Numbered from the stretch's first letter, positions 5,253 through 34,107 are shown. The stretch is 64,000 nt of DNA from Candidatus Bathyarchaeota archaeon (GCA_963827165.1 CAWGZR010000005.1:704001-768000); one strand, 5' to 3'. Made by a program: numbers and translations. Notes: generated from the letters alone by a model not told the origin.

Positions 5253-6653
5253 TTATTTTTTGCTCATGGTTCGCATGATGATGTAATTTGCGGCGGTTCG
5301 AGCCATAATTTTGCTGTACACGCTGCCCCGCAGATACCCTTTTACGGCTTGGCGAAGGAAGTACTTGATTGAGTAGAACTTATTGTAGAAATCCTGCCTT
5401 TCTTTAAGCACTATTTCAGCGGGCAGATTAGGATCTTCAAAGATCGCGTTCATCGTGTTGTAACGGTTCCAGTCATTGGTCATCTTCCACCCATAGCTCT
5501 GAACCAAAGCCCGAAGCTCAGTTCCTGGGTAAGGTGTGGGAATATTTAGCCAAACGCTATCGGGTTCCACTCTTCGGACAAAATCAAGGCTTTCCGTAAG
5601 AGTTTCCCGTGTTTCACCTGGATAGCCCAGAATTATAGAGACGGTGGTAAATATTCCCGCTTCTTTAGACCATTTGATGGCGTTTTCGCACTGTTCAGTG
5701 GTGACTTTCTTCTTCAGGGAGTCGCGGATTCTTTGGCATCCTGATTCTACGCCGAAGCAGATTTCGTCGCAGCCGGCCTTATGCATCTTAGCGAGCAGCT
5801 CTTTTGTCGTTACGTCTGCCCGGGTTCCACAGCCCCATTTCAAATTTACCTTGCGCTCAATCATTCCATCGCAGATATCGATCGCTCTTTTCTTATCGAA
5901 GGAAAAAGTGTCATCTTGAAACTGAATTCCCTCTGCTCCATACTCGTTTTTGAGCCATCCAATTTCGTCAAGAACGTTGCCAGCGCTTCTTGCACGGAAT
6001 GTTCTGCCAAACATTTCGGACGCAACGCAAAAGCTGCATTGGAAGGGGCATCCCCTGCTTGAGATTATCGGCAATATCCTTTTTCCGTTGATTCGGTATT
6101 TTTCGATTGGAATCTGTTTGTAGTCTGGGCGTGGCAGCGCATCTAGGTTTTGGATGAACGGTCGGGTTGGCGCTTGCACGATTTGTTTGTCTTTTCGGTA
6201 AGTTATGCCTTTGATATTGTCTATGTTTTGTAGCTGGGGTTGCTTTGCGAGTTCCAGAAGGGTTTCTTCTCCTTCGCCTCTTACGATGACGTCAACTACG
6301 CTTTCTTGAGTAAGGATTTCTTTGTCTTGGAAGGTCGCGTGTGGTCCACCCATAACGATTTTAGCGTCAGGACAGGCTTCCTTTGCGGCGTAAGCGGTTT
6401 TGAGAGCTGACTCAAAAGTCTGCGTCATCGCGCCGACCCCGACTATGGTGGGTTGGTAAACGCTTAGTTCCTTTTTGAGGTTCTCATGGTCTATGCCGTA
6501 TATGGGGCAATCAAAGACTTTTACATCAAAATTGTTCTGCTCCAGCACAGCCGCCATATATGCCAAGCCAAGCGGTGCGAAAAGCGGGTGATCGCCTGCT
6601 CCTTCGAGGAGCGGTGTATTAACGAGCGCTATCTTGGGCTTGTTTGTTGTCAT
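5253..6653 (-). CDS. Cobalamin-binding (class B) radical SAM protein #1
   Basis: B12-binding N-domain 'PLGLAYMAAVL...GGPHAT...GEGE'; 'SRGCPFQCSFC', 'GVESG', 'TPYPGT'. Confidence 0.92.
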   Translation of the reverse strand: MTTNKPKIALVNTPLLEGAGDHPLFAPLGLAYMAAVLEQNNFDVKVFDCPIYGIDHENLKKELSVYQPTIVGVGAMTQTFESALKTAYAAKEACPDAKIVMGGPHATFQDKEILTQESVVDVIVRGEGEETLLELAKQPQLQNIDNIKGITYRKDKQIVQAPTRPFIQNLDALPRPDYKQIPIEKYRINGKRILPIISSRGCPFQCSFCVASEMFGRTFRARSAGNVLDEIGWLKNEYGAEGIQFQDDTFSFDKKRAIDICDGMIERKVNLKWGCGTRADVTTKELLAKMHKAGCDEICFGVESGCQRIRDSLKKKVTTEQCENAIKWSKEAGIFTTVSIILGYPGETRETLTESLDFVRRVEPDSVWLNIPTPYPGTELRALVQSYGWKMTNDWNRYNTMNAIFEDPNLPAEIVLKERQDFYNKFYSIKYFLRQAVKGYLRGSVYSKIMARTAANYIIMRTMSKK

Positions 6654-6844
6654 TATTATACACGTTTAGCAAGGGGTTATTTTAATGACTAATCATTGTC
6701 GCTTGGATATAGGTCTTAAGCATATAATTTTAAGATTTTAACCTTTTGCTAAAGTTGCGCCCAACCGCTAAACCTGGCAGTGAGCATATTTTTCACCGTT
6801 ACATTTTTATAATGTGAGGTTGACGCTTCTTTCGAGGACCCTTT

Positions 6845-7588
6845 TTGCGAGTTGCTTCAATGTGGACTGGCGGCAAAGATAGCTACTTAGCTTGCTCAGG
6901 CGCCGTCTCCGAAGGAAACAACGTTACCACACTCATAAACTTCGTATTCAAAGAACCTCCACATCCTAAACCCAATAGAATCAAAAGTTTGGCGGGTTCG
7001 GTTTTGATGAAGCTGTCTGGGATGAAGCCCTACAAGGATGTTCCGCATGAAGTTAACCCCGAAATCATCGCGTTGCAGGCGAAGGCGTTGGGTTTGCCGA
7101 TTGTGCAGCCAGAAGTTTCGATGATGGAGTTCGTTGACAAATTTAAGGCAACGATCAGTAGCCTGAAGCCGACTGTTGAGGGAATCGCTTGGGGTGCCGA
7201 GGAGGATCAAGCCGCCGTTCACATGTCGATGCTTACCCCTATCTGCGAAGAGCTAAAGGTAAAAATGATTTTTCCGCTCAAAGGCATCGGCGAAGACGCA
7301 AACATTGAGACTTTCACTCGGAAAGGTTATGAAGCAACCGTAATCGTTGTTGACACTGACTTTTTGAGTGAAGATTGGCTTGGACACGAAGTCGACGCCA
7401 ACTTCTTGGAGCAGATCCGCAACAAAAGCAAGGAAACAGGCACGGCGGTAAGCAACATCGAGTTCCACACGCTCGTCACCGATGCCCCTCTTTTCAGGAA
7501 ACGCCTCAGAATCGTTGAAAGCCGTAAGATCAAACGGAAAGGGTTCGCGGTGCTCGACATAACCAAAGCTGAACTTATCGAAAAATAA
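6845..7588 (+). CDS. DUF71/Dph6 (diphthine-ammonia ligase family) PP-loop ATP pyrophosphatase, divergent paralog A
   Basis: 'WTGGKDS' PP-loop and 'EFHTLVTDAPLF'; lacks the canonical DPCGEGG segment. Confidence 0.8.
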   Translation: MRVASMWTGGKDSYLACSGAVSEGNNVTTLINFVFKEPPHPKPNRIKSLAGSVLMKLSGMKPYKDVPHEVNPEIIALQAKALGLPIVQPEVSMMEFVDKFKATISSLKPTVEGIAWGAEEDQAAVHMSMLTPICEELKVKMIFPLKGIGEDANIETFTRKGYEATVIVVDTDFLSEDWLGHEVDANFLEQIRNKSKETGTAVSNIEFHTLVTDAPLFRKRLRIVESRKIKRKGFAVLDITKAELIEK

Positions 7589-7638
7589 GTCACTTCAGAA
7601 TAAGATTGCCCGAAAACCTGAGCGGGTTTTGGAGCGGC

Positions 7639-9885
7639 TCATCTAATTTTTCTTTTGAGTCGTCTTGCCGTCAAAAATACAACCAAAGCAGCGATTACCG
7701 CCAAAACCAAAAAAACAGCGATTTCGGAGACCGGTTCTGCCGTTGCGGGTTTTGCTGTTGATGCAGGTCCAAAAGCGTAGAGCATATTGTTGTATGAGCC
7801 CACGTATACGGCACTGTCGGCTGCGGCTGGTGAGGAGACAACCATTTCGCCTGTGGCGTAGCTCCAGATTTCTTTGCCGTTTTGTGCGTTGAGGGCATAG
7901 ACGTCGCCGTCGTAGGAGCCAACGTAAACAGCACCGCCTGAGACTGCAGGCGACGACGCTACTTGCCCGCCGGTCAGGAAGCTCCACGCGAGTTTGCCAT
8001 CCGACGCCTGCAAAGCGTAAACTTTCCCGTCTCCTGACCCCACATAAATCAGGCCGGCCGCCACGGCAGGGGACGAAGCAACCCCCGCATCCGTGGCGAA
8101 TTCCCAGACGAGTTTGCCGTCGGAGGCTCGCAGGGCATAGACGTTGTGGTCGTAAGAGCCAATGTACACGACGCCGTCTGCTACTGCGGGCGACGAAACC
8201 ACGTAGCCCCCTGTTGCGTAGTTCCAGATGATGGAACCGTCGGAGGCATTGAGGCAGTAGACGTTATTATCGTTTGAGCCGACATAGACTCTGCCGTCGT
8301 TGACTGCGGGTGAGGAAACCGTGATTTGACCGTTTGTAGTATAGTGCCATATGAGTGTGCCGTCCGATGCGTTTAAGGCGTATATGCTGCCGTCTTCTGA
8401 ACCCACATACATGACGCCACCCTGTACGGTGGGAGAAGAAACCACTGGGCCGCCTGTTTTGAAGCTCCAAACCTTGATGCCTGTGGCAGCATCGAGTGCG
8501 TAAACATTGCCGTCGTAAGAGCCCACATACACGATGCCATCCGCAACCGCAGGAGATGAAAACATCACCATGTCGCCCGTAGCGTAGCTCCACACCACGT
8601 TGTTATGCATTTCCACGTTGAATCCAACCATACCGGTCGAAGCGTTCAAAGCGTATACGACGCCATCATGCGAACCCACATAAACCAGCCCGTCTGCTAC
8701 TGTTGGAGAAGAGTCTATTTCACCCCCTGTTGCGTAGCTCCAAACGTAGCCGCCCGTCGTAGCATTCAATGTATATAGTTTCCCGTCCCAGCAGCCAACG
8801 TAAACCCTGCCGTCGGCCACTTCGGGACGCGAAATAACCATGTCACCCGTCACGTAGGTCCACAGCAAACTGCCGCCGGAGGCATCAAGCGCATATACTC
8901 TGCTGTTCTCCGATCCCACATAAACTGTGTCGCCCGCCACCGAAGGGGAAGAAGCTACAGCTGCACTTGTTGAGAAACTCCAAATTTTGGCGCCGGTTTC
9001 TGCGTTTAGGGCGTAGACCTTGTCGTCGGTTGACCCAATGTAGACAGTGCCTCCGCTGATACAGGGCGAAGAATAGATTGCTCCGCCCGTCGTGAAGTTC
9101 CAAATCTGTTTGCCAGAGGAGGCTTCCAAAGCGTAGATTTTTCCGTCGTCGGAACCAGCGTAGACCACGCCTGACTGTACCGCGGGTGAAGAAACCACTT
9201 GGCTGCCCGTTGAGTAGGTCCAGATGAGGGCTCCGTTAACGGCGTTGAGAGCGTAGATTTTGCCGTCTTCCGACCCGATGTACAAGGTTCCGTTGCTGAC
9301 CGCAGGCGACGACAACATGATTTTGTAGCCCGTGCTGAAGTTCCACGCCAACCTGCCTGTTTGGGCGTTTAGGGCGTAAACATTGTGGTCTTCCGAGCCG
9401 AAGTACACGTTTCCGTAGGCGACGGCTGGGTCACAGTCAACGTAGTTTCCTGTCGCGAAGTTCCAAAGTTTTGCGCCGTTGGTTGCGTTGAGTGCATAGA
9501 GGTTGTGGTCTTCGCTGCCAACATACACCCTGCCTTCTGAGACTGCGGGTTGGGAAATCACGATGCCGCCCGTCGTAGACGCCCAGATGACAGCGCCGCT
9601 TAGGGCATCGAATGCGTAGATGTTATGGTCAAAAGAACCTACGTACACGACGCCGCCGACTACAGTGGGTGAATCCATTTGGCCGCCCGTGTTGAACTTC
9701 CAAAGTGTCTGATTCGTCGCAGGCGCCGAAGAATCTCCACTGCCTGTGTGAGCGGGATTACCGTGAAACATGGGCCACCCAGCTGCACTGACTTGGCTCT
9801 GGGCTGCTCCCAAAATGGCTGCGGCTAAAAACAGCGTAGACAGAACAAAAACAAACGTGGCGGCTGCTTTCATTTCTGTTTCCAT
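7639..9885 (-). CDS. Secreted, C-terminally anchored PQQ-like beta-propeller repeat protein (16 repeats)
   Basis: Signal peptide, 'WPMFHGNPAHTG' cap, 16 repeats of W..xTG...SSPxV..G.VYVGS.D..YALNA, C-terminal TM followed by a basic tail. Confidence 0.9.
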   Translation of the reverse strand: METEMKAAATFVFVLSTLFLAAAILGAAQSQVSAAGWPMFHGNPAHTGSGDSSAPATNQTLWKFNTGGQMDSPTVVGGVVYVGSFDHNIYAFDALSGAVIWASTTGGIVISQPAVSEGRVYVGSEDHNLYALNATNGAKLWNFATGNYVDCDPAVAYGNVYFGSEDHNVYALNAQTGRLAWNFSTGYKIMLSSPAVSNGTLYIGSEDGKIYALNAVNGALIWTYSTGSQVVSSPAVQSGVVYAGSDDGKIYALEASSGKQIWNFTTGGAIYSSPCISGGTVYIGSTDDKVYALNAETGAKIWSFSTSAAVASSPSVAGDTVYVGSENSRVYALDASGGSLLWTYVTGDMVISRPEVADGRVYVGCWDGKLYTLNATTGGYVWSYATGGEIDSSPTVADGLVYVGSHDGVVYALNASTGMVGFNVEMHNNVVWSYATGDMVMFSSPAVADGIVYVGSYDGNVYALDAATGIKVWSFKTGGPVVSSPTVQGGVMYVGSEDGSIYALNASDGTLIWHYTTNGQITVSSPAVNDGRVYVGSNDNNVYCLNASDGSIIWNYATGGYVVSSPAVADGVVYIGSYDHNVYALRASDGKLVWEFATDAGVASSPAVAAGLIYVGSGDGKVYALQASDGKLAWSFLTGGQVASSPAVSGGAVYVGSYDGDVYALNAQNGKEIWSYATGEMVVSSPAAADSAVYVGSYNNMLYAFGPASTAKPATAEPVSEIAVFLVLAVIAALVVFLTARRLKRKIR

Positions 9886-9942
9886 CTCACTCAGGTATTA
9901 AGGAATAAAGAGGTTTTCTCTTAAAACAGGGAAAAGGCAGGG

Positions 9943-11040
9943 CTACTTTTTGCGAAGGCTTTCAGGAATGTAAACACAAGCGGGGTCCTCAGCATACATG
10001 TCGCCTGTGTAAGCGTACGCGCGGTTTCTGCATCCCCCGCAGAGCTCACGGTATTCGCAGACTCCGCATTTGCCCTTGAGTAGGTTGCGGTCTTGGAAGC
10101 TGCTGTAGAACGGTGAGGACTTAACATCTTTCCAAGCGTCCTGCAGCGATTTGTTTCGAATGTTGCCCAGCCTCTGGTGTTCGGTGGGTGTGAGGTCGGT
10201 GTAGAAGCATGGGATAAGGTCGCCATTCTCCGTGACTGAAACGTAGCCGCCGAAAGCGAAGTAGGTGCATTTGCCGTGGAATTTGTGCTCGTACCATTTA
10301 TCGAAGTTTGGGATGCCGCGCATTTTGACGACGCGGGCGAAGTGGGGGCAATGGACATGGATTTCGAATTTGCCCTCATATTTTTCGGTGAGGTCCCAAA
10401 TGTGGTTGAGCACCCACTCATACTGTTCGGCCGAAGGGGTGAGGTCAGCCATTTCCTTGGCTCTTCCACTGGGAACAAGATGGTTAAACCAGACGAAGTT
10501 CGCGTGATACTTCTCCGCCAACTCGCAAACATGGTCGAGATGCTGATAATTTATGGTAGTTATGGCGCAGGCTAACCCGTTGAGGATTTTGCCCTTGCTG
10601 AGTTTGTCAATGGCGGCCAAGGCCTTGCGGTAGCTGCCTTTGCCCCGAAGTTGGTCATTGATTTCTTCGGGTCCGTCGATACTAACGCTGGTCCAGATTT
10701 GGTCCCTCACCAGGTTGTCATAGATTGAACCATCGACAAAAGTGCCGTTAGTAAGAAGGCAGACGTTGAGACCTTTGCTCTTGGCATATTTGGTGATTTC
10801 AAAGATGTCTGGGCGCGTAAGCGGTTCTCCCCCTTTTATGCCGAACCAGCGGACGCCGAATTCTGACACTTCATCCACAAGGTGGAATGCTTCTTGAGTT
10901 GTGAGTTCCCTGGGGGCTTTGGCGCCTGTGGCGTCAACGTTGCAGTATTTGCAACGGGCATTACATGCACCTGTTGCCCTCCAAGAAGTCATAAGCAAAG
11001 GACCCTTACTCGTCAAACAAAAACCCTCTCTTTCTCGCAA
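9943..11040 (-). CDS. Radical SAM/SPASM-domain protein (NirJ/Ahb/PqqE-like superfamily)
   Basis: CNARCKYC, 'GGEPL'; SPASM cysteines 'PCF...CGVCEYRELCGGCR...DPAC'. Confidence 0.88.
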   Translation of the reverse strand: MREREGFCLTSKGPLLMTSWRATGACNARCKYCNVDATGAKAPRELTTQEAFHLVDEVSEFGVRWFGIKGGEPLTRPDIFEITKYAKSKGLNVCLLTNGTFVDGSIYDNLVRDQIWTSVSIDGPEEINDQLRGKGSYRKALAAIDKLSKGKILNGLACAITTINYQHLDHVCELAEKYHANFVWFNHLVPSGRAKEMADLTPSAEQYEWVLNHIWDLTEKYEGKFEIHVHCPHFARVVKMRGIPNFDKWYEHKFHGKCTYFAFGGYVSVTENGDLIPCFYTDLTPTEHQRLGNIRNKSLQDAWKDVKSSPFYSSFQDRNLLKGKCGVCEYRELCGGCRNRAYAYTGDMYAEDPACVYIPESLRKK

Positions 11041-11270: not shown

Positions 11271-13889
11271 ATTCACAAAAAAGTCTTAGTTCTTGCTATT
11301 TTATTTGTGCTTCTTACTTCATCAGTTTCCGCCTCAATTTCCGCCCTTCAAATGAACGCAAAGGCACAGGCGACAGGCACAACTTCTAACTTGAACCAGT
11401 ACGAATGGCCCCAATTTCAAGGAGACGAATCGTTCACCCGTTTCTCAGCAGGACCCGCCCCAAGCACATCTAACGTGCTTTGGAAAGCCACTATACCTGG
11501 TATACAACCGGACCTTACAGCCTTCGACGGCTTAATCTTCGTAGGCACAAACACATCCCTCGTAGCAGTAAACCAAGCCGGTCAAATAGCTTGGAGCACC
11601 CCTATTCCCTTGAATAAAACCTGGCCCATAGCCTACGAAATTGATTCTTCACATTTGGTTGCGGAGGGTAGCTGCCTTGATCCCTCCACTGGCAAAATCC
11701 TGTGGACAAGCACTTCGTTTTGCGCGGACACAGGAATCTTCACGTCCAACGTTTACAGCCCCGAAACAAAAATGTTTTATGTAAAAGATAATTCCTACAT
11801 TGTCGCATGGAACTTCGCCGACCCCTCAAAGCCGCCGACCGTTGCGTGGACAACTTACATTCCAGGCGGAGGCCAAGCAGGCATCGGAACAACCTATGGA
11901 GCCGGCATAGTCTTCGCAGGCTCCTTTGAAAACCAACAGCTGGCGCTTAACGCAACAACTGGCAAAATAATATGGGATACCCAAACGAAGGGACCCATGA
12001 TTTTTGACGGCGCCTACGCGGATGGCTTCTTCTTCAGAGGCGGAACAGACGACAACACAATGTATTGCTTTAACGCAGCCGACGGACAAATCGTGTGGAC
12101 CTACACTCCACCTTCTGACCCAAATGGGTACTTCACAACTGGACCCGCCATCGCTTACGGAACCGTTTATGAAATGAACAAAGACGGGTACCTCTACGCC
12201 CTGAACGAAAAGACTGGCGCTCTGCTTTGGAAATACAAGAGTCCGGACACCGATTTCATGTGGCCAGGAATGCCCACAGTGGCGGACGGCAAAATCTACC
12301 TCACTACCGGCCAACACGCAGCTTACAATGGTCCAGCACAGGTCTCCCAATTCGCGTGCTTGAACGCATACAACGGGCAAACCATCTGGACCCTTCCCAT
12401 TGAAGCGTTGGCTCCCAGGGAGTCGGCCATCGTTGCGTATGGAAACTTGTACATCATCCCCGGTGAAGTAACATCCGCCGTTGACACAACATCAGGAACA
12501 GAATACTCAACAAATAACGCGCTTTGGGCGATAGGCGGCGGAAGCTCAACTCCAGCGCCGACCCCGTCTGGCACCCAGGGATCTGCCCCAACACCCACGC
12601 CGGCGCCTTCGCTGACACCGATTTTGTCTTCGAGCCTCAGCAATTGGACTATGTTTCGCGCTGATCCAGCTCACTCATCAACAGCCGAAGTCGGCCCATC
12701 AAACCTTACTGAAGCTTGGAAATTCGCAACTGAGGGCTCAGTTGTCTCCTCGCCAACGGTCGTTGGCGGAGTGGTTTATGCCGGTTCACAGGACAAAAAC
12801 GTTTACGCAGTTGATGCATTGAGCGGCAAGCTTGTCTGGAAGTTTGCTACTAGCGGCTCGATTGAAGATTCGCCTGCCGTGGCAGCTGGATTACTATATA
12901 TTGAGAGCGACGACGGCTACGTTTACTGCCTTAACGCACAGAGCGGGGCACTCAATTGGCAGACCCCCGTTGGGAGCAATCTGCACTACACGTATGCGAA
13001 CCTGATGCTAACCTCTTCACCCGTTGTATCAGATGGCATGGTTTACATCGGCTCCTTAGACGGCAACCTATACGCCCTCAACGCGGAATCGGGCGCGATT
13101 GTTTGGAAAACTCCATCGGGCGGACCAATCGAGTGTTCACCAGCCTACTCTGACGGCGCCGTCTTCTTCACTTCCCAGCAGCCATCGACTGGCATGCTCT
13201 TCAAGCTTAACGCGGATACTGGACAGGTAATGTGGAACTTCACGATTCCTTATAATCACTCGTTTTTAGGCGGGACAGAGCTTCTTGGTTCCCCTTCCGT
13301 TGCAGCAGGGATGGTTTTTGCATCCTCAGACTGGGGAGCTTACTACGCAGTAAACGTTGAATCAGGCCAGATGGTGTGGGATTTCGTTAACCCCGCGGCT
13401 ACGGAATTCATTGTTTCCTCACCCATCTACGTTAATGGTGACCTCTACATCATCAACATATTCAATATTATGTGCCTCAACGCAGCGAATGGACAAATGG
13501 TCTGGACCGCCTACACAGGAGACGAACTCTACGTTTCGCCTTCCTATGCTGATGGCAAAATCTACGTTGCAACTAGCGAACGGCATATATTTGTTCTCGA
13601 CACCACGCAAGGCGGTAAGAAAATTGCGACTGGTACCACACCCTCCAGTAGCTGGTCTTCGCCAACGATAGCGGACGGCATGCTATACATCGGATGTAAC
13701 GACTGGAATATCTATTGTTTTTCAGAAGGCATCAGCACCCAAGGGTCAACCCCTGCCACAACAGACAACGTCGCGATGGGACACGACATAGTCATTGTAG
13801 TATTCGTAATCGCTGCCCTTGCAATTGCAGCAGCCTTCACAGTGAGCTATGTTAACAGAAAGAAAGTCAAAACGCCGTCGACAGCTTAG
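11271..13889 (+). CDS. Secreted, anchored tandem PQQ-like beta-propeller protein with Pro/Thr linker (first canonical start GTG 11307; ATT 11271 proposed)
   Basis: Two caps (WPQFQGD, WTMFRAD), propeller repeats, PT-rich linker, C-terminal TM; in-frame upstream 'IHKKVLVLAILF' completes a signal peptide. Confidence 0.85.
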   Translation: MHKKVLVLAILFVLLTSSVSASISALQMNAKAQATGTTSNLNQYEWPQFQGDESFTRFSAGPAPSTSNVLWKATIPGIQPDLTAFDGLIFVGTNTSLVAVNQAGQIAWSTPIPLNKTWPIAYEIDSSHLVAEGSCLDPSTGKILWTSTSFCADTGIFTSNVYSPETKMFYVKDNSYIVAWNFADPSKPPTVAWTTYIPGGGQAGIGTTYGAGIVFAGSFENQQLALNATTGKIIWDTQTKGPMIFDGAYADGFFFRGGTDDNTMYCFNAADGQIVWTYTPPSDPNGYFTTGPAIAYGTVYEMNKDGYLYALNEKTGALLWKYKSPDTDFMWPGMPTVADGKIYLTTGQHAAYNGPAQVSQFACLNAYNGQTIWTLPIEALAPRESAIVAYGNLYIIPGEVTSAVDTTSGTEYSTNNALWAIGGGSSTPAPTPSGTQGSAPTPTPAPSLTPILSSSLSNWTMFRADPAHSSTAEVGPSNLTEAWKFATEGSVVSSPTVVGGVVYAGSQDKNVYAVDALSGKLVWKFATSGSIEDSPAVAAGLLYIESDDGYVYCLNAQSGALNWQTPVGSNLHYTYANLMLTSSPVVSDGMVYIGSLDGNLYALNAESGAIVWKTPSGGPIECSPAYSDGAVFFTSQQPSTGMLFKLNADTGQVMWNFTIPYNHSFLGGTELLGSPSVAAGMVFASSDWGAYYAVNVESGQMVWDFVNPAATEFIVSSPIYVNGDLYIINIFNIMCLNAANGQMVWTAYTGDELYVSPSYADGKIYVATSERHIFVLDTTQGGKKIATGTTPSSSWSSPTIADGMLYIGCNDWNIYCFSEGISTQGSTPATTDNVAMGHDIVIVVFVIAALAIAAAFTVSYVNRKKVKTPSTA

Positions 13890-13904
13890 TGGGCGCCTCA
13901 GACT

Positions 13905-17290: not shown

Positions 17291-17298
17291 ACCGCTAG

Positions 17299-17565
17299 TC
17301 AAATTTGTGCCTTGCTTTTTTCAGCCTTCATAAGTTCAGCAGTAAGCCTCCAGAGAAAGAATCCCAGTGCACTGACAAAAAACATCGCGATTGTGAAAGT
17401 GTCTGTTCTTACGTTCAGTAGATGGGAAACACGTTCTGGCAGCCATTCCGGATGAGTAAACTGTATGACTACTCCGTCTAGCCACGCTAGGAAACCGAAA
17501 AAGAACAGCATCTCCCCGACAACCTTGATGATGACAAGCGCTAATCTATTGGAAGAAGTATTCAT
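17299..17565 (-). CDS. Small two-TM membrane protein
   Basis: 88 aa, two hydrophobic helices, ATG start, TATA-like TTTATAA upstream on the minus strand. Confidence 0.65.
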   Translation of the reverse strand: MNTSSNRLALVIIKVVGEMLFFFGFLAWLDGVVIQFTHPEWLPERVSHLLNVRTDTFTIAMFFVSALGFFLWRLTAELMKAEKSKAQI

Positions 17566-21959: not shown

Positions 21960-22060
21960 TTTCTGCGTCACTGTTTGACCCTTCAAAAAGATCTGTTTGA
22001 TGCTTAAACATTTCGCATTTTCGGGGCAAAAAGTGGTGAAGGAAATTTTTGACGGATTTC

Positions 22061-26314: not shown

Positions 26315-26323
26315 AACAGCCAC

Positions 26324-26356: not shown

Positions 26357-26398
26357 AAACTTTATCGAAGGATTTTTTCAAATTATTTAAATCTTGAA

Positions 26399-27259: not shown

Positions 27260-28636
27260 CTACGCGATTCCAACGTTTTGGTGAGCTTTTGGGTTCAATC
27301 TTCTTTTTGCGAAGTTAAAGGCGCCTTCACGTTTTACCCGCTTCATTATTTGTTTTGGCGAGCGGTGGAAATCTATGAAGAATCTTCTTTGAATTTTTAG
27401 CAGGGAGTTGTAGTCAAACTCTTTGGTTTTTACAGCTAGCAGAAAATCGTCAAGCTTGACATAACTATTTGAATCTAAGACTTCCTGATAGAGCCTGCTA
27501 TCTGGGTTTGCAATGAAGATGTTAAATATACACCAGTCGGGACTCAGTTTTTTAGCGAACTTCAACGACATTTCCATATCTTTGAGCGTCTCGTCTGGGA
27601 CACCCAGCATGAATGAGCAGGCTGTTTTTATGCCATTTTTGCTGCAAAGCTTGAAGGCGGTTTCTATCTGCTCAAGAGTTGTGTTTCGCCCGATCCGCTG
27701 TAGAATCCTCTGCGACCCCGACTCCACGCCGAACCAGATTGTTTTGCATCCCGCTTTGCTCATGGTCTCCAAAAGTTCCTGGTTAACTAAATCCACGCGG
27801 GTGTCACATACCCATTCTAAATCTAGATTATTCTCAACCATCAGATTGCAAAGTTCGATGGTTTGTTTCTTTCTGAGTGTAAAGTTGTCGTTGATGAAGT
27901 AAATTCCTTTTGTGCCATACTTGCTTTGCAAATCCTTTATTTCCCCGATGACCCGCTGTGGACTGAATGCTCGGCAGATGTTTCCCCAGAGTTTTTTTGT
28001 TTCGCAGAAGCCGCAGTTGTAGACGCATCCCCGTGAGATGCTCATTATGTCGGCGGGTTTAACGTTGAGGTACTCAACGGTTCTGTCGTAAAGTTCGAGC
28101 TTTAACAGGTGCCTTGCGGGATAAGGAATTTCATCCATGTTTTCGATGAATTTTGGCGGGTTTTTGATGTTTTTGCCTTGACGTTTGCATGCGACTCCAG
28201 GTATTGTCATGGCGGCTTGTTCATTGCCGTTTGTTATGCATGTAGCTAGTTCCGTTATTGCGCGTTCGCCTTCGCCCATAACAACGTAGTCGATTTCAGG
28301 GTTGTCCAGCAAACTGTCGGGAACGTAAGAGGCGTGCCATCCGCCAACGATTATCTTACAATCAGGTAGGGTTTCCTTGATGGCTTTGGCGGTTTCTGTA
28401 CAGCGCGAATAGGTGGCTGACCCACAGGTGATGCCAACAATTTGAGGTTTAAGATTGAACACCAGCTGTTTTACTTCGCTGATGGGGTTTTTCATAAGGT
28501 AGTTGTCGAGCATCTGCACTTCGAAGCCTGCTTTTTCCAGTGCCGCGGCAACATACATTAAACCTATAGGAGGCAACCGTTTGCCAAGGTACCATGCGCC
28601 GTTTTCGGGAGGAGCCGTTGTCATTAAAAGAATCAA
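27260..28636 (-). CDS. Cobalamin-binding radical SAM protein #5
   Basis: 'PPIGLMYVAA', 'GGWHAS', 'SRGCVYNCGFC', 'GVESG'. Confidence 0.92.
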   Translation of the reverse strand: MILLMTTAPPENGAWYLGKRLPPIGLMYVAAALEKAGFEVQMLDNYLMKNPISEVKQLVFNLKPQIVGITCGSATYSRCTETAKAIKETLPDCKIIVGGWHASYVPDSLLDNPEIDYVVMGEGERAITELATCITNGNEQAAMTIPGVACKRQGKNIKNPPKFIENMDEIPYPARHLLKLELYDRTVEYLNVKPADIMSISRGCVYNCGFCETKKLWGNICRAFSPQRVIGEIKDLQSKYGTKGIYFINDNFTLRKKQTIELCNLMVENNLDLEWVCDTRVDLVNQELLETMSKAGCKTIWFGVESGSQRILQRIGRNTTLEQIETAFKLCSKNGIKTACSFMLGVPDETLKDMEMSLKFAKKLSPDWCIFNIFIANPDSRLYQEVLDSNSYVKLDDFLLAVKTKEFDYNSLLKIQRRFFIDFHRSPKQIMKRVKREGAFNFAKRRLNPKAHQNVGIA

Positions 28637-28868
28637 ATTAGTTTTCTCCTTCTGTGAAACTTTGCAATCTAAGCAGCACGTTTTGTCTCCCTGTAAACGT
28701 TTGCTTACTTTGATTAAACCCGCGTTTATAGGTTTAACTGAACCTACGTTTAGGAGTGTTTGTTATTTGTTTTTGCTGTTTTCTGAAAGCAAAGCCTGTG
28801 GTTGCAGATGTTTATGAAAAGGTTTATAGCCCTTCCGAGTGCCTTTTCCAGAACGAAGAGGGGTAAAG

Positions 28869-29576
28869 ATGAAAGTTGTCGTCCACTGGAGCGGCGGCAA
28901 AGAATGCTGCTTAGCTTACCACAAAGTCGTCAAGCAGGGACATCACGTTGCTTGTCTTCTCAGCTTCGAATATCAGCGTCCTTACGTATTTCACAGTTTC
29001 CAGATGATGCATCTCCAATCCCAAACGCTGGGCACGCCCCTTAAAGTTGTCAGAATCAGAAAGCCGTACGAAGACATCCTTGGCGCCCTGAGCAAACTAA
29101 AGGATGAGGAGGGCATTGAAGGCATCGTTACAGGCGATATAGCTGGTGCAGGATGCGCCATTGTACACTCAAGCTACTATGAGAGTATGGCCAAACAGTT
29201 GGGGTTAGCTTTCTTGATGCCTAACGAGGGCGACACGTACGAAGTGCTTAAGGACGCTGTGAGCACAGGTCTAAGACCGGTCTTAACTTGTATCAACACC
29301 AACTTTTTCGGCGAGGAATGGCTGGGAAGAAAACTTGATCCAGAATCCGTCAAGGAACTCAAAGCGATAGCCGACGAAAAAGACATTGACGTTGCCAGCG
29401 AAGACGGACAAGGCTACCACAGCACCGTGGTCGAAGCGCCTCTTTTTAAAGATTCTTTGAGCATAGGCAAATTCAAAACTAAGAAAAAGAAGGAAAAATC
29501 CAAAAATTGGAAAAGAAACTGGCTCTACATGGACATTAAAGAGTGCCATTTGACGCCAAAGCAACCGTCCAAGTGA
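28869..29576 (+). CDS. DUF71/Dph6-family ATP pyrophosphatase paralog B
   Basis: 'MKVVVHWSGGKECC', 'VTGDI', 'EEWLGR', 'YHSTVVEAPLF'; ATG 28869 after GAGGGG. Confidence 0.85.
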   Translation: MKVVVHWSGGKECCLAYHKVVKQGHHVACLLSFEYQRPYVFHSFQMMHLQSQTLGTPLKVVRIRKPYEDILGALSKLKDEEGIEGIVTGDIAGAGCAIVHSSYYESMAKQLGLAFLMPNEGDTYEVLKDAVSTGLRPVLTCINTNFFGEEWLGRKLDPESVKELKAIADEKDIDVASEDGQGYHSTVVEAPLFKDSLSIGKFKTKKKKEKSKNWKRNWLYMDIKECHLTPKQPSK

Positions 29577-29705
29577 GGTTCCTTCGACCTTTTGGCCTTC
29601 ATCATTCTGAAAATCTGATATTTTAGGTTTCAGATGGAAAATTGCGTGCAATTGCATAAAGTAAATGTAGCACAAGGTATAAACTCTATTGCTTCAGGTA
29701 AAAAC

Positions 29706-31118
29706 ATGAAAACTCGCATTACTCTTGTCAATCCGCCGTACCCTGCCGGTTCCCATCAACATCCCCCTTTCATGCCTCTGGGTATAGGGTACTTAGGCGC
29801 TGTGTTGTACAAGAATCACTTTGAAGTTAACGTGATTGATTGTCAAGCGCAGAAATTAACGCACAGCCAATTCAAAGAGGAAATCAGCAAGGTTCAGCCG
29901 GACATAGTTGGAGTCACCTGCACAACCCTCACCTACAAGTCAGCGCTCGGCATAGTGAAAATAGCTAAACAAGTTTGGCCAAAATGCCTAACCGCAATCG
30001 GAGGACCCCACGTCACTTTCTGGGATGAAAAGGCACTGCAGGAATGTCCTGAACTTGACATTGTGGTCAGAGGCGAAGGCGAGAATACGATTCTTGAACT
30101 TGCGCAGAGAGTCGAAAACGGTCAAGCGTATCATGACCTCATCGGAACTACCTGCAGAAACGGCTCGGCAATGGCGAAGAACCCCGATAGACCGTATTTG
30201 GAGAACCTCGACAGCTTACCGTTCCCAGCTCTGCATCTATGGTCGCACACGGCGAACTTGCGCAAATACGGTACGATTCCCTACCCAGTGATGACAAGCC
30301 GCGGCTGCGTCTACTGGTGCAATTTCTGCACAACTGTGCGTATGTTTGGCAGAAGATACCGCATGCGCAGCACCAAAAACGTGGTTGACGAGTTGGAGTT
30401 CCTGCACAAGAACTATTATGCGACTCAATTCACCTTTTACGATGACGCATTCACAGTTAACCAAGAACGGACGATGGAGATATGCGACGAAATCGTGCGC
30501 AGAGGGCTAAAAATCAAATGGGACTGTGAAACCCGAGTGGACATGGTTTCCAAAGAATTGTTCGTTAAGATGAGGGAAGCAGGTTGCATCGCTGTTTGGT
30601 TCGGTGTAGAGTCGGGTTCAAAGACGCTTCTAACCAGCATGGGAAAGGGTTTCTCGCTTACGCAGACAAGACGGGCTTTCAAGTGGGCAAAAGAAGCGGG
30701 CTTGATGACAGTTGCAGGCGTCATTTTAGGATTTCCCGGCGAAACCAAGGAAACCGTTTGGGAAACAATCCGGTTCATAAAAGAGCTGAACCCAAATGAC
30801 GTCGGCTTCTACATTGCAACACCTTACCCAGGAACACCGCTATATGAGGAAGTCAAAGCAAGCGGTAGGCTAAAGATAACTGACTTCGACAAGTATGACA
30901 CTGCAACGCCGACTTTCGAGATTCCAAATTTCACGATGCAAGAGCTATCACAAATCCGGGAAAAAGCATTCCAAAGCTTCTACCTTAGCCCAGCATACTT
31001 CGTCAGCGCTCTTGGCATGTTCAGACAAGGCAAAATGTGGGGTTTAGGCGCAACTCGACTGATTCTCGCTCACGCAAGACGGGCAGTAATAGCGAGGGCA
31101 AACAGCATCATGAAATAG
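29706..31118 (+). CDS. Cobalamin-binding radical SAM protein #6
   Basis: 'MKTRITLVNPP', 'GGPHVTFWD', 'SRGCVYWCNFC', 'GVESG', 'TPYPGT'. Confidence 0.92.
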   Translation: MKTRITLVNPPYPAGSHQHPPFMPLGIGYLGAVLYKNHFEVNVIDCQAQKLTHSQFKEEISKVQPDIVGVTCTTLTYKSALGIVKIAKQVWPKCLTAIGGPHVTFWDEKALQECPELDIVVRGEGENTILELAQRVENGQAYHDLIGTTCRNGSAMAKNPDRPYLENLDSLPFPALHLWSHTANLRKYGTIPYPVMTSRGCVYWCNFCTTVRMFGRRYRMRSTKNVVDELEFLHKNYYATQFTFYDDAFTVNQERTMEICDEIVRRGLKIKWDCETRVDMVSKELFVKMREAGCIAVWFGVESGSKTLLTSMGKGFSLTQTRRAFKWAKEAGLMTVAGVILGFPGETKETVWETIRFIKELNPNDVGFYIATPYPGTPLYEEVKASGRLKITDFDKYDTATPTFEIPNFTMQELSQIREKAFQSFYLSPAYFVSALGMFRQGKMWGLGATRLILAHARRAVIARANSIMK

Positions 31119-31145
31119 AAAAATTTTGACGGAGAAAATGTTAGA

Positions 31146-32516
31146 TTGATTTTGCTGATGACTACTGCGCCGCCCTTGAAGTCGCCTTGGGGCGTGGCTG
31201 GAAGGCTTCCTCCTTTGGGTTTGGCATACGTTGCCTCAGTACTGGAAAAAAGCGGCTTCCAAGTTGAAATCTACGACAATTACTTGCTCGAGCGACCCAT
31301 CGAAGAAGTTAAATCGGAAATAAGAAAATGCTCCCCAGAAATCGTTGGCTTAACATGCAATTCTTTGTCTTATGAGCGAGTCGTGGAAATGGCTAAGACA
31401 GTTAAAGAGGCGTGTCCTTCCTGCCGCGTTATTATCGGCGGTCCGCATGCCTCGTACATGCCTGAGACACTGCTTGAACACCCGGAGATAGATTACGTAG
31501 TTGTCGGAGAAGGAGAGAGGGCCATGGTTCAGCTTGTTTTCAACATTACAAAAGGCGAAAAGGCCTCGGCGGCAGCGCAGATTCCCGGAGTTGCATGCAA
31601 AATCGGTGGTGAAATAGCCGAAACTCCACCTCAATTCATCGCTAACCTGGATGAGGTTCCTATTCCAGCCCGTCAATTGCTGCCGATGCGGATGTACGTT
31701 CGGGAACTGAGTTATCTTAGCGTTAAACCCGTTGACACCATGAGCATACATCGTGGTTGTCCCTACAGATGCGCTTACTGCGAGACAAGGGAGCTTTGGG
31801 GCTCAGCTTGCCGCGCGTTTTCGCCGCAGAGAGTAATCGACGAAATCCAGCAGATAGTCGAAACCTACGGCACAAAAGGCATTTACTTTGTCGGCGACAA
31901 CTTTACCATAAACAAAAAACGCACAACCGAACTTTGTCGCCTTATGAAAAGCAACAAAATCGATTTGAAGTGGACTTGCGAAACACGCTCCGACCTAATC
32001 AACAAAGAACTCCTATCAGAAATGAAATCTGCGGGCTGCCAAACCATGTTTTTCGGCGTCGAATCTGGATCGCCTCGGATTCTGCAGAAACTCAACAAAG
32101 GCATTGATCTGCAGGAGGTTGTGAAGGCTTTTGAGCTCTGCAGGCAAGTGGGCGTGCAGACTGTGACGTCTTTTATGCTGGGGATTCCAGGTGAAACCGT
32201 CGACGACATGAACGAGACTTTCGACTTTGCTAAGAAGCTGAAGGCGGATTGGTGTCAATTCAACATCTATATAGCCTGCCCAGGCAGCGCGCTCTACGAC
32301 GAAGTAATAAACAAAGGCCTCTACGATCAAATGTACGGCTATCTTGCACGGGTCAAAACCGACCAATTCGATTACGACACACTCACCACGATTCAACGCG
32401 ATTTCCAGAGAAGCTTCCAGAAATCCGCCGCCCAAAACTTTATGCGGGTAGCAAAGCAAGAAGGCTTAGGAAGCGCGGTCAAGAAGAGTGCGTCGATGGT
32501 TTTTCGCCGCTCATAA
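31146..32516 (+). CDS. Cobalamin-binding radical SAM protein #7
   Basis: 'PPLGLAYVAS', 'GGPHAS', 'HRGCPYRCAYC', 'GVESG'; close paralog of 27260-28636. Confidence 0.92.
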   Translation: MILLMTTAPPLKSPWGVAGRLPPLGLAYVASVLEKSGFQVEIYDNYLLERPIEEVKSEIRKCSPEIVGLTCNSLSYERVVEMAKTVKEACPSCRVIIGGPHASYMPETLLEHPEIDYVVVGEGERAMVQLVFNITKGEKASAAAQIPGVACKIGGEIAETPPQFIANLDEVPIPARQLLPMRMYVRELSYLSVKPVDTMSIHRGCPYRCAYCETRELWGSACRAFSPQRVIDEIQQIVETYGTKGIYFVGDNFTINKKRTTELCRLMKSNKIDLKWTCETRSDLINKELLSEMKSAGCQTMFFGVESGSPRILQKLNKGIDLQEVVKAFELCRQVGVQTVTSFMLGIPGETVDDMNETFDFAKKLKADWCQFNIYIACPGSALYDEVINKGLYDQMYGYLARVKTDQFDYDTLTTIQRDFQRSFQKSAAQNFMRVAKQEGLGSAVKKSASMVFRRS

Positions 32517-32670
32517 AAGGCTTTAATCACCAGAAAAGGGTTCAAACTTTAGTTCGGTTTCTTTTTTTTAGCATTTTCAAGAGGATGCAACATCTTTGTT
32601 GCCAAACTAGACAACTATATTAACGCGTGGAGTTAATCTAACTAAAATATTACGAATTTAGGGGAGAAAG

Positions 32671-34107
32671 ATGAAAACTCATGTAACCCTTGTGAATCCA
32701 CCCTACCCCGGTCACTCATTTCCACATCCGCCTTTCCCGCCGCTGGGCATTGGCTACGTAGCCGCCGTTTTGGAGAAGAACAAATTTGTCGTCGACGTCG
32801 CAGACGCCCTCGTCCTTGGAGTAAGCTACGAAGGGTTAAAACAGGAATTCCTCAAACGCAAACCAGACATCGTCGGTTGCACATGCAACACCCTAACTTA
32901 CAAATCCGCCCTTGCATGCCTGAAAGCCGCCAAAGAAGCCAACCCCAAATGCATAACCGTCATCGGTGGACACCACGTCACCTTCGAAGACGAACAAGCC
33001 CTTAAAGACGAGCAGACGCTAGACCTCGTCATCCGAAACGAAGGTGAATACACTATGCTAGAGCTCGCCGAGCGGGTGGAAGCCGGCAAGGATTACCGCG
33101 ACATCATCGGCACAACTGTAAGAGGCAAAGACGGTGCAATAGTGAGGAACCCTAAAAGAGCTCACATCGAAAACCTCGATGAACTCCCATTCCCAGCCCG
33201 TCACCTATGGCCGCTGGAAGCCACCTCAAAATATGGCAAAGTAATGTTCGACATTATCGCAAGCCGCGGCTGCTCCTTTGCATGTGACTTCTGCATCGAG
33301 GTCCGCATGCACGGGCAAAAATTCCGCAAACGCAGCGTAGCAAACGTCTGCGAAGAGCTTGAACAGTGTAAGAAAGATTTCGGCGCAACATGGTTCAGCT
33401 TCGTCGACGCCGCCTTCACGGTGGACCAGCAGTTCACCTCAGACCTGTGCGACGAAATCATAAAGCGCAACCTCAACATCAACTGGGTTGCTGGAACCCG
33501 CGTAGACATGGTCACTGAAGAATTGCTCAAGAAGATGGCTAAGGCAGGCTGCAAATCCGTTTGGTACGGCGTCGAAAGCGGCGCACAAAACGTGCTTAAC
33601 GAGATGCGTAAAGGCATCACGTTGGAGCAAACCAAGAAGGCGTTCCATTGGACTGTTGATGCGGGAATGAAGCCTGACCCGAACGTTGTGTTGGGCTTCC
33701 CAGGTGAAACCAAAGAGTCCGCGTGGGCAACCATAAAGCTGTGCCAGGAAATCGCCCCATACTACATGGCGTCTTACACCATAGCTACACCATACCCAGG
33801 CACGCCGCTCTACTATCAAGTTAAAGAGAAAGGTTACCTAAAAGACACAGACTTCGACCACTACGACACAGCCACGCCAACCTTCGAAACCCCAACCATG
33901 ACCATCCAAGAACTCCGCAAACTCCGAGCAAAAGCGTGGTCAAGCTTCTACGAACGACCAAGCTACATACGAGCCATGTTCAAAAAAAGCTTCATCTACG
34001 GATTAGCCGCCATGAAAGCAGCCGCCACCTTTAGGCTCATCGACCTGCGAATGGCACTGCAACCAAACAAAGTACCGCCAAAGCCGCCTTCAAAAAGCCA
34101 CTTCTAA
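32671..34107 (+). CDS. Cobalamin-binding radical SAM protein #8
   Basis: GGGGAG RBS; 'PPLGIGYVAA', 'GGHHVTFED', 'SRGCSFACDFC', 'GVESG', 'TPYPGT'. Confidence 0.92.
   Translation: MKTHVTLVNPPYPGHSFPHPPFPPLGIGYVAAVLEKNKFVVDVADALVLGVSYEGLKQEFLKRKPDIVGCTCNTLTYKSALACLKAAKEANPKCITVIGGHHVTFEDEQALKDEQTLDLVIRNEGEYTMLELAERVEAGKDYRDIIGTTVRGKDGAIVRNPKRAHIENLDELPFPARHLWPLEATSKYGKVMFDIIASRGCSFACDFCIEVRMHGQKFRKRSVANVCEELEQCKKDFGATWFSFVDAAFTVDQQFTSDLCDEIIKRNLNINWVAGTRVDMVTEELLKKMAKAGCKSVWYGVESGAQNVLNEMRKGITLEQTKKAFHWTVDAGMKPDPNVVLGFPGETKESAWATIKLCQEIAPYYMASYTIATPYPGTPLYYQVKEKGYLKDTDFDHYDTATPTFETPTMTIQELRKLRAKAWSSFYERPSYIRAMFKKSFIYGLAAMKAAATFRLIDLRMALQPNKVPPKPPSKSHF

Follow-up and report, generated by a model that had tools for sequence, protein, structure and literature searches.

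Nine class B radical SAM paralogs lie within 43 kb

The stretch of DNA considered here (the window) comprises 64,000 nucleotides from Candidatus Bathyarchaeota archaeon (GCA_963827165.1, CAWGZR010000005.1:704001-768000), and our subject is an array of paralogous genes, between positions 5,253 and 34,107, that are predicted to encode class B (cobalamin-dependent) radical S-adenosylmethionine (SAM) enzymes. A preliminary description counted eight such genes (R1-R8 here, in the same order), placed them in recognizable subfamilies, and put them forward as candidate methylases of the backbones of butanetriol and pentanetriol tetraether lipids (BDGTs and PDGTs). When the open reading frames (ORFs) of at least 150 aa in positions 1-40269 (n = 28) were scanned against Pfam, a B12-binding domain (PF02310, 43-87 bits) followed by a Radical_SAM domain (PF04055, 73-116 bits) was found in eight of them, namely R1-R8, and all eight keep the CxxxCxxC motif. 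The count of eight class B paralogs is thus borne out for the window.

The array extends beyond the window. In particular, a hidden Markov model (HMM) of R1-R8 matched 19 of the 5769 ORFs of at least 80 aa in the genome (3.13 Mb in 14 contigs, 94.5% complete) at E<=1e-5, and the nine top ORFs, at 593-730 bits, all lie inside 43 kb of contig C5 (C5:694748-738107). These nine are R1-R8 and a ninth close paralog, R0. Five more ORFs resembling B12-dependent radical SAM (B12-rSAM) proteins are found elsewhere in the genome at 224-397 bits, and the five remaining matches are weak (at most 54 bits). Note that a further B12-rSAM paralog (L083:6214-7608, that is, C4:171214-172608 of this genome, G000) adjoins genes for pterin-binding and DUF447 proteins, a setting suggestive of methanopterin-type cofactor synthesis.

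Among the 25 best NCBIfam models for each protein, none was matched above its curated cut-off by any of R1-R8; the scores were 173-250 bits for BchE (cut-off 481), 153-237 for HpnJ (cut-off 578), 97-154 for BzaD (TIGR04385, cut-off 450), and 105-150 for the glutamine methylase of methyl-coenzyme M reductase (MCR; TIGR04014, cut-off 360). For R6 and R3, the matches listed by a protein atlas were generic B12-rSAM clusters. The AlphaFold2 model of R6 (predicted local distance difference test 93.6) had TsrM, AprD4, MgmA, OxsB, TokK, and CysS as its top Foldseek matches, with TM scores of 0.63-0.75 and 15-21% identity, and this predicted structure confirms the class B fold and nothing further. Because residues 1-21 are disordered in the model and the paralogs align from Met25, R6 probably starts at that methionine (position 29706), leaving 29634-29705, the first 24 codons of the ORF, untranslated. 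Pieces of R6, R7, and R8 occur at 92-100% identity in contigs of four peat or soil RNA libraries (four studies), two of them without differences (268 nt at 32673-32940 and 151 nt at 33984-34134). Note that such contigs cover small shares of the stretch, that the uncovered parts are uninformative, and that the pieces indicate presence in RNA libraries only.

The paralogs fall into four deep subfamilies

The motifs on which the preliminary description had based its grouping are distributed exactly as it stated: HVTFxD, VRMxG, and DFDxYDT are found in R4, R6, and R8; MILLMTTAPP, CETxxLWG, CRAFSPQRVI, and DWCxFNI in R5 and R7; ASxMxGxxFRAR in R1 and R2; and APESG in R3 only. Pairwise identity amounts to 54-58% among R4, R6, and R8 and to 54% between R5 and R7. 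R1 and R2 are 40% identical, which is not above the 41% between R1 and R4, and R3 is 30-34% identical to every other paralog.

We built a maximum-likelihood tree of 49 rows with IQ-TREE (ultrafast bootstrap, UFBoot, and SH-aLRT supports), comprising R0-R8, two out-paralogs, relatives from six distant loci, six genes of genome G040, and the gms-adjacent genes introduced below. R1 and R2 form clade A (support 100/100); R4, R6, R8, and R0 form clade B (100/100); A and B are joined at 100/99; R5 and R7 form clade C (100/100); and R3 belongs to clade D (100/100), which is sister to the out-paralog at C5:265604 (100/99). Clades A-D each include orthologues drawn from more than one family of Bathyarchaeia. 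The earlier grouping is therefore right and also old. R1 and R2 are united with full support despite their 40% identity. Judged from this tree, the four subfamilies are deep, well supported, and ancient.

The nearest identifiable relatives adjoin gms genes

The product of gms, Gms, has an AhbD-like radical SAM/SPASM core with an N-terminal extension of about 100 aa (PMC11214058, Garcia et al.; here and below, published work is represented by passages of the cited sources), and several groups of archaea have gms clustered with gmm, the gene of a B12-rSAM methylase (PMC11214058). A gene with the same architecture, which we term gms-like and regard as a candidate synthase of glycerol monoalkyl glycerol tetraethers (GMGTs), lies downstream of the array at 41221-42654. 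The core of its product, residues 118-467, scores 314 bits on the AhbD model (cut-off 500). This protein has matches at E<=1e-50 in 163 of 301 Thermoproteota genomes, where full-length homologues are 40-49% identical and align from about residue 10-35 onward.

In view of the published clustering of gms with gmm, we examined gms-like loci for adjoining B12-rSAM genes. Twenty loci were picked by hand, 17 from non-Bathyarchaeia Thermoproteota families and three from other Bathyarchaeia. In five of the 17 (L091, L092, L093, L096, and L100), a B12-rSAM gene encoding 470-484 aa abuts or overlaps gms. The products of these five gms-adjacent genes score 407-479 bits on the HMM of R1-R8, compared with at most 397 bits for the out-paralogs of the window's own genome, and they are 31-40% identical to R0-R8 (E 2e-57 to 1e-104). 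Moreover, they share the pattern of BchE, HpnJ, and ApyD matches, with BchE at about 240-250 bits. Within the taxonomic order of the window's genome, single-copy relatives directly adjoin gms in genomes G033 (where the genes overlap), G084, and G138 (both by coordinates), and in the tree the gms-adjacent genes and single-copy Bathyarchaeia genes make up one clade (98 UFBoot/92 SH-aLRT). By sequence comparison, then, the gms-adjacent B12-rSAM genes of other Thermoproteota, which have the gene arrangement by which the lipid methylase Gmm is defined, are the nearest identifiable relatives of R0-R8, and R0-R8 themselves are class B cobalamin-dependent radical SAM paralogs of the wider Gmm family that fall outside its gms-adjacent core clade.

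In the published survey, members of the Gmm family were sought by BLAST at E<=1e-65 to the Gmm of Thermococcus guaymasensis and a length of at least 400 aa (PMC11214058). Measured against the five gms-adjacent proteins, which serve as stand-ins for Gmm, every pair with R0, R1, R2, or one of R4-R8 is at E<=1e-66, and the pairs with R3 range from 2e-57 to 1e-63. According to the same source, the Gmm homologs of many Bathyarchaeota fall "exclusively in the Gmm2 clade", for the most part as several copies from different parts of that clade (PMC11214058). We infer that R0-R8 are such multi-copy Gmm2-type homologs of Bathyarchaeota.

Gmm methylates the alkyl chain of GMGTs and explicitly not the glycerol backbone (PMC11214058). 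As shown for Gmm, lipids with a methyl on the chain co-elute in normal phase, whereas a methyl on the backbone alters normal-phase retention and the fragments derived from glycerol. Two Gmm homologs, Cgm and Pgm, methylate glycerol dialkyl glycerol tetraethers (GDGTs), tentatively at C-13, and Cgm is membrane-bound through its C-terminus; a third, Ted, comes from a Bathyarchaeota metagenome-assembled genome (MAG), is 31% identical to Gmm, and desaturates GDGT chains (bioRxiv 10.1101/2025.10.20.683597). Because Cgm and Pgm methylate and Ted desaturates, homologs at such a distance carry out lipid chemistry that is not always methylation. The C-terminal 50 residues of R0-R8 have a net charge of +5 to +11 and amphipathic stretches, as do those of the gms-adjacent proteins, and the R6 model ends in three helices; these basic tails are compatible with, and no proof of, membrane anchoring in the manner of Cgm.

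The best matches of the island's proteins to BchE, AhbD, and HemN had raised the idea of a tetrapyrrole substrate, which we dropped since the gms-adjacent proteins give the same BchE and HpnJ matches; the BchE-like look is thus a trait of a family of lipid enzymes and not a sign of tetrapyrroles. AhbD likeness was discarded as such a sign as well, Gms itself being AhbD-like (PMC11214058).

Cobamide, DUF71, and lipid genes share the island

Coordinates of the array and of the genes around it are collected in Table 1. With two CobS/CobY-like pairs, CobT, CbiZ, and an MtrH gene beside a small corrinoid protein, the surroundings are dense in functions of cobamide salvage and loop assembly. Two co-directional runs tie the array to cobamide genes. 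One consists of the tandem Lrp-type regulator gene, R4, cbiB, and R3, separated by gaps of 52-101 nt, and the other is headed by DUF71 copy B and continues through R6, R7, and R8. Most near relatives likewise have copy B upstream of their R6 orthologue. A CbiQ/ABC-ATPase transporter is likewise among the cobamide genes, and the whole set lies within 80 kb; since CbiP and CbiC are encoded elsewhere in the genome, the island does not hold the whole B12 pathway. We also asked whether the tandem Lrp-type protein might be a siroheme decarboxylase with AhbA and AhbB fused, and rejected this idea, as only regulator models (NCBIfam) match it.

Table 1 Genes of the array, its surroundings, and related genes elsewhere in the genome. 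Positions refer to the window unless a contig (C) or locus (L) is named; scores are in bits, with the model cut-off after "vs".
Feature	Position	Strand	Description
R0	C5:694748-696133		Ninth close paralog, 8 kb upstream of the window; from the genome HMM search
CbiZ	L081:8348-9391		Just upstream of the window
MtrH gene with small corrinoid protein	L081:12532-13891		Just upstream of the window
HemN-family radical SAM protein	3821-5116	-	PF04055 and HemN_C; ChuW/HutW 188 vs 400, HemW 150 vs 205; downstream of R1
R1	5253-6653	-	466 aa, class B radical SAM, subfamily A; CPFQCSFC, ASxMxGxxFRAR; 136 nt upstream of the same-strand HemN-like gene
DUF71/PF01902 copy A	6845-7588	+	PP-loop ATP pyrophosphatase; PF01902 3e-35; Dph6 model 92 vs 197; divergent from R1
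AhbD-like radical SAM/SPASM protein	9943-11040	-	365 aa, without N-terminal extension; AhbD 224 vs 500; 33% identical to the gms-like core
R2	13905-15371	-	488 aa, class B radical SAM, subfamily A
Amidohydro_3 family hydrolase	15641-17290	+	PF07969 3e-91; in 27 of 80 related loci
R3	17979-19427	-	482 aa, subfamily D; APESG in place of GVESG; ends the run Lrp-R4-CbiB-R3
CbiB, adenosylcobinamide-phosphate synthase	19480-20475	-	NF002281 276.8 vs 273; TIGR00380 230 vs 166; between R4 and R3
R4	20577-21986	-	469 aa, class B radical SAM, subfamily B
Tandem Lrp/AsnC-type regulator	22061-23083	-	Two HTH_AsnC and AsnC_trans_reg; first in the run with R4, CbiB, R3
Class I SAM-dependent methyltransferase	26399-27259	+	Methyltransf_11/25; in 31 of 80 related loci
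R5	27260-28636	-	458 aa, class B radical SAM, subfamily C
DUF71/PF01902 copy B	28839-29576	+	Dph6 model 97 vs 197; heads the run B-R6-R7-R8 (gaps 57, 27, 154 nt)
R6	29634-31118	+	494 aa as ORF, subfamily B; 57 nt downstream of DUF71 copy B
R7	31146-32516	+	456 aa, subfamily C; 27 nt after R6
R8	32671-34107	+	478 aa, class B radical SAM, subfamily B; 154-nt gap after R7
Conserved 98-aa ORF	34182-34478	-	Of no family and without a Pfam match above cut-off; downstream of DUF71 copy C; matched by tblastn in 39 of 80 loci
DUF71/PF01902 copy C	34574-35305	-	Dph6 model 108 vs 197; 41% identical to copy B
CobD-like threonine-phosphate decarboxylase/HisC-type aminotransferase	35648-36760	-	TIGR01140 278.7 vs 290.6, just under
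Three glycosyltransferase genes (GT2, GT2, GT4)	37395-40269	+	Pfam; in related loci the same block separates cobD from the gms-like gene
gms-like gene, candidate GMGT synthase	41221-42654	-	AhbD-like radical SAM/SPASM core and ~117-aa N-terminal CxxC...CxxC extension
CobY-like guanylyltransferase and CobS, set 1	42721-44171	-	PF12804, PF02654; TIGR00454 and CobY models below cut-off
UbiA prenyltransferase, DGGGP-synthase-like	45148-46035	+	PF01040; PRK12882 163 vs 296
Tes, tetraether lipid synthase	46036-47508	+	NF045702 463.3 vs 450 (above)
DUF71/PF01902 copy D	50637-51323	+	Dph6 model 139 vs 197; directly upstream of cobT-cobS-cobY
CobT, CobS, CobY-like, set 2	51325-53814	+	TIGR00303 397.6 vs 240; PF02654, PF12804
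Dph6	C5:357834-358343		211 vs 197; 169-aa ORF covering model positions 2-163 of 218
PF01902 copy outside the island (sixth in the genome)	C9:44846-45514		

Six PF01902/DUF71 genes are present in the genome, and only the copy at C5:357834 scores above the Dph6 cut-off. Genes for non-Dph6 DUF71 proteins that cluster with cbiB or with B12 transporters have been predicted to function in B12 salvage (PMC3541065, De Crecy-Lagard et al.). The motif rule for DUF71 proteins (ENGE[FY]H versus EGGE/DxE) gave no split of the island copies from the outside copy, which shares the motif of copy D, and was set aside. A predicted complex of R6 with DUF71 copy B scored 0.00 in a run without controls, and so counts neither for nor against binding.

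The lipid genes begin downstream of R8, with the gms-like gene at 7.1 kb, the UbiA gene of the digeranylgeranylglyceryl phosphate synthase (DGGGPS) type at 11 kb, and tes at 12 kb. Glycosyltransferase genes flank this group on both sides.

The array is conserved in some genera of two families

Relatives of R6 at 54-94% identity define 80 related loci, many of which are shorter than the flanks requested. The titles of 74 of the 80 name Bathyarchaeota, Bathyarchaeia, Bathyarchaeum, or Bathycorpusculum, and many belong to series of soil and peat MAGs. Six loci carry other labels (L011, L012, L038, and L036, and also L073 and L077), with titles such as Limnocylindrales, Acidoferrum, Actinomycetes, and Nanoarchaeia; their clusters are 71-85% identical to R6, and these records, which hold a Bathyarchaeia-type cluster, probably reflect wrong labels or binning. 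Gene order is conserved across the 80 loci, with at least two R-family ORFs in 76 of them, and in distant relatives, including Bathycorpusculum, a core run of four paralogs, one per subfamily, is followed by a convergent DUF71 gene. All 24 other genomes searched in the same genus have 3-19 matches at E<=1e-40, and 13 of 16 genomes from the rest of the order have matches, mostly one to four and in one case eight. Given the matches in every searched genome of the genus and the recurring gene order, the array is neither a chance nor an assembly feature. Within the fetched flanks of the 80 loci, DUF71 is a neighbor in 64, CbiB in 39, CobD in 32, the gms-like gene in 16, and tes in one.

We then considered 151 Bathyarchaeia genomes that are at least 85% complete, scoring no more than 11 candidates per genome so that counts of R-family genes are lower bounds. 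Arrays of at least three R-family genes are found in 22 of the 151, the window's genome included, and were found only in some genera of two families (18 in family f1 and four in family f7); 23 more genomes have one or two copies, and the two most-sampled families have arrays in none of 35 and none of 18 genomes. At least three DUF71 copies are present in 17 of the 22 array genomes, as against six of the 129 others. Within f1, the five array-less genomes have one DUF71 each, and within f7 the two array-less genomes have one whereas the four array genomes have three. Note that these genomes are kin, and that the comparison therefore amounts to a few independent contrasts and not to a statistic. 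A close orthologue of the gms-like gene shows the same pattern of presence as the arrays in the phylum sample.

Other genes of the window

Several further genes recur with the array. The triad of the HemN-like gene, R1, and the AhbD-like gene is found in related loci, distant ones (L041, L048) among them, and could be a paralogous copy of a gms-gmm-type module. Three large proteins of PQQ-like beta-propeller or Ig-like type are encoded amid the array (7639-9885, 11307-13889, and 23579-26314), and similar genes are seen in related loci. An RnfD/NqrB-like membrane protein fused to a C-terminal 2x[4Fe-4S] ferredoxin (873-2273) adjoins the array in some distant loci.

Thirty small ORFs in eight intergenic gaps were compared with the 80 loci by tblastn. 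The sole clearly conserved locus was 34161-34521, between R8 and DUF71 copy C, with three overlapping ORFs and matches in 39 of the 80; the next-best gap, near 17300-17565, had matches in 10. None of the 30 ORFs in these eight gaps was repeated or resembled a precursor peptide.

Lipids, cobamides, or other substrates

We favor, at about an even chance of its being right, the view that R0-R8 tailor lipids, most likely by C-methylation, and that the supply of their cofactor is encoded alongside. It draws on sequence kinship, which is the only direct evidence on the proteins, on the gms-like, tes, and UbiA neighbors, and on the literature on the family; it is inferred that the substrate is a lipid, that the reaction is a methylation, and that the B12 genes act in supply. 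The lipid-methylase interpretation in the preliminary description thus holds in one part: a membrane-lipid substrate is plausible, given the gms-adjacent kin and the gms-like, tes, and DGGGPS-like genes 7-13 kb downstream, but no paralog is tied to the backbone rather than to the chains.

Several observations weigh against lipid tailoring. The nearest and most constant neighbors of the array are cobamide genes and not lipid genes, R4 and R3 flank cbiB in the same direction, and a DUF71 gene heads the R6-R8 run. Clades A+B, C, and D all lie outside the gms-adjacent clade, their branching order relative to it has a support of no more than 39/39, and the window's genome has no member of that clade in the tree. 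The link to Gmm goes through stand-ins defined by synteny, and the equation of the R genes with Gmm2 comes from a passage of text (PMC11214058). Function within the family diverges between methylase and desaturase, so the label "methylase" is insecure, and the literature covered holds no lipid data for the genus. Finally, the parts of the island (arrays, extra DUF71 genes, and the gms type) appear to occur all together or not at all, and their co-occurrence therefore cannot discriminate between a lipid and a cobamide substrate.

Much of the same evidence could be taken to mean that the paralogs act on cobamides or other tetrapyrroles, as BzaD/BzaE-like or tetrapyrrole-modifying enzymes of a cobamide remodelling factory. 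The two co-directional runs would fit such a role, as would CbiZ, CobD, CobT, and two CobS/CobY sets within 60 kb, the HemN-family and AhbD-like genes that flank R1, and the most constant neighbor, DUF71, whose copy number rises in array genomes and whose non-Dph6 members were predicted to serve B12 salvage (PMC3541065). However, BchE as best hit is common to the Gmm-type proteins beside gms and is uninformative on tetrapyrroles, in phylogeny the paralogs show affinity to the gms-adjacent clade, relatives that adjoin gms outside Bathyarchaeia lack DUF71 and CbiB neighbors (no DUF71 match in the 20 loci), and the G040 array has no DUF71 gene within the 31 kb fetched. The specific form of this idea raised in the preliminary description, methylation of the cobamide lower ligand by BzaD/BzaE-type enzymes, fails on the TIGR04385 scores, which are far below the cut-off, and on the lack of any detected ThiC/BzaF-type gene (PF01964) in the 94.5%-complete genome; a control search found this family in 13 of 14 named genomes. 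With no detectable ThiC/BzaF, the feeder enzyme of the Bza route is removed (note that the missing PF01964 match is relevant to the making of the thiamine pyrimidine and of benzimidazole alike). Moreover, the gene runs and the co-variation with DUF71 are equally expected if nine B12 enzymes are inherited together with their cofactor supply. B12-dependent enzymes are often encoded beside B12 supply genes. We consider a cobamide or tetrapyrrole substrate improbable.

Glycans, proteins or peptides (like those of RiPPs, the ribosomally synthesized and post-translationally modified peptides, or like MCR), and small molecules from peat organic matter are also unlikely as substrates, although we would give them, taken together, somewhat more weight. 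The sub-threshold matches to RiPP methylase models (ApyD 135-233 bits, rSAM_ocin_1 77-146 bits), the similarity in structure and sequence to the aminoglycoside enzyme AprD4 and the protein methylase MgmA, and the presence nearby of three to five glycosyltransferase genes, an epimerase, large secreted beta-propeller proteins, and the family-less 98-aa ORF downstream of DUF71 copy C point in this direction. All matches to RiPP and class B models are nevertheless far under their cut-offs; those to BchE, HpnJ, ApyD, and MgmA (TIGR04014) are common to the gms-adjacent proteins (rSAM_ocin_1 was not seen there at E<=1e-30), the small ORFs include no repeated precursor peptide, and the solved structures are only 15-21% identical.

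Within lipid tailoring, a narrower proposal is that at least one subfamily C-methylates the glycerol backbone of tetraethers to yield BDGTs and PDGTs while others methylate chains or sugars. The extra methyl of butanetriol lipids is of methionine origin, and class B enzymes can methylate sp3 carbons bearing oxygen. Kinship to lipid methylases and the nearby tes and gms-like genes speak for this proposal, as does the fact that four subfamilies, together with the canonical Gmm elsewhere in the order, exceed the known chain methylations; moreover, the literature passages covered name no enzyme that forms BDGTs. On the other side, none of the evidence tells backbone from chain for any paralog, and in the case of Gmm it is the chain that receives the methyl "and not the glycerol backbone" (PMC11214058). 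BDGTs have been ascribed to the genus Baizosediminiarchaeum, which prevails in marine sediments (PMC12694404), as opposed to the soil and peat titles here; the NCBI taxonomy contains no entry under that name. The arrays were found in only 22 of the 151 Bathyarchaeia genomes and in neither of the two most-sampled families, and, as weak evidence, the atlas matches listed for R6 and R3 include no Thermoplasmatota cluster. The butanetriol hypothesis of the preliminary description finds no specific support here and is a minority possibility; a backbone role for any subfamily seems to us quite improbable, and the suggestion that the subfamilies methylate different positions in sequence is conjecture.

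A proposed model for lipid tailoring by the array

If R0-R8 do tailor lipids, each paralog would find its substrate, an ether lipid (archaeol, GDGT, or GMGT), at the membrane. Hydrogen would be abstracted from an unactivated sp3 carbon by a 5'-deoxyadenosyl radical formed at the [4Fe-4S]/SAM site; the methyl group would then come from methylcobalamin, and the cob(I)alamin left behind would be methylated anew by a second SAM. For class B methylases, such a radical and methylcobalamin mechanism is well established. Subfamilies A (R1/R2), B (R4/R6/R8/R0), C (R5/R7), and D (R3) would differ in substrate or position, and one or more of them may carry out non-methylating chemistry, as does their relative Ted. 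CbiZ, CbiB, CobD, CobT, two CobS/CobY sets, and the four DUF71 paralogs would represent a co-inherited cofactor supply and not a substrate pathway. In its boldest form, which we regard as a long shot, the island would be a self-contained unit for tailoring lipids whose labor is split among the four subfamilies, one or more of which, unlike the chain-methylating canonical Gmm type, would make the butanetriol or pentanetriol backbone, and the DUF71 paralogs would tailor or repair the cobamide.

Comparison with known systems

R1-R8 resemble the Gmm of T. guaymasensis (X802_RS00110; PMC11214058) in combining B12-binding and radical SAM domains and in having a similar length (456-494 aa); a gms-like gene is present in the same island as the array, and multiple Gmm2 copies are reported for Bathyarchaeota in the same source. 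Unlike gmm, however, no R gene adjoins the gms-like gene (R8, the closest, ends 7.1 kb away, and the gap holds cobD and three glycosyltransferase genes), and the array consists of nine copies in four subfamilies amid cobamide genes and outside the gms-adjacent clade. Note that this comparison was made through the gms-adjacent genes of other Thermoproteota. Cgm (Saci_1785), Pgm (of T. aggregans), and Ted, known here by description, are Gmm homologs that act on tetraether chains, and Ted is derived from Bathyarchaeota (B1_G15). The published searches for these enzymes required more than 495 aa for Cgm and at least 500 aa for Ted (bioRxiv 10.1101/2025.10.20.683597), whereas R1-R8 have 456-494 aa, and general Pfam scans of the window turned up no AttH-like hydratase partner.

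BzaD and BzaE (TIGR04385) are also class B radical SAM enzymes, and like R1-R8 they are encoded beside the cobamide loop genes cobT and cobS, but R1-R8 score far below the family cut-off and the genome lacks a detected ThiC/BzaF-type gene. MgmA, the MCR glutamine C-methyltransferase (PDB 9ccb), has the same fold and is among the best solved matches; it is about 20% identical, and its model, TIGR04014, is matched far below its cut-off. The island copies of DUF71 resemble the B12 subgroup of PMC3541065 in scoring below the Dph6 cut-off, in lying beside cbiB or cobT/cobS/cobY (the criterion of that paper), and in having a signature motif that ends in E-[FY]-H. They differ from it in that the asparagine of the published ENGE[FY]H is absent. 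Moreover, the passages of PMC3541065 covered here make no mention of radical SAM enzymes, whereas the island copies sit in, and co-vary with, runs of B12-rSAM genes.

Implications

The tetraether lipids of archaea are in wide use as markers of environment and palaeoclimate, and in sediments and peat Bathyarchaeia rank among the most abundant archaea. In the literature covered, the enzymes of several lipid modifications, for example those that form butanetriol and pentanetriol backbones, are without assignment. That Gmm homologs are multi-copy in Bathyarchaeota is already in print (PMC11214058); new here are the four-subfamily structure, the make-up of the island, and the link to DUF71 paralogs. 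For DUF71 proteins other than Dph6, a role in B12 metabolism was predicted in 2012 and is not settled in the passages covered (PMC3541065); that their copy number tracks the B12-rSAM arrays provides a new lead. For the lipids, the set of paralogs is now reduced to four ancient subfamilies that lie beside tes and a gms-like gene and that are testable, as expression hosts (T. kodakarensis and M. acetivorans) have been published for this family of enzymes.

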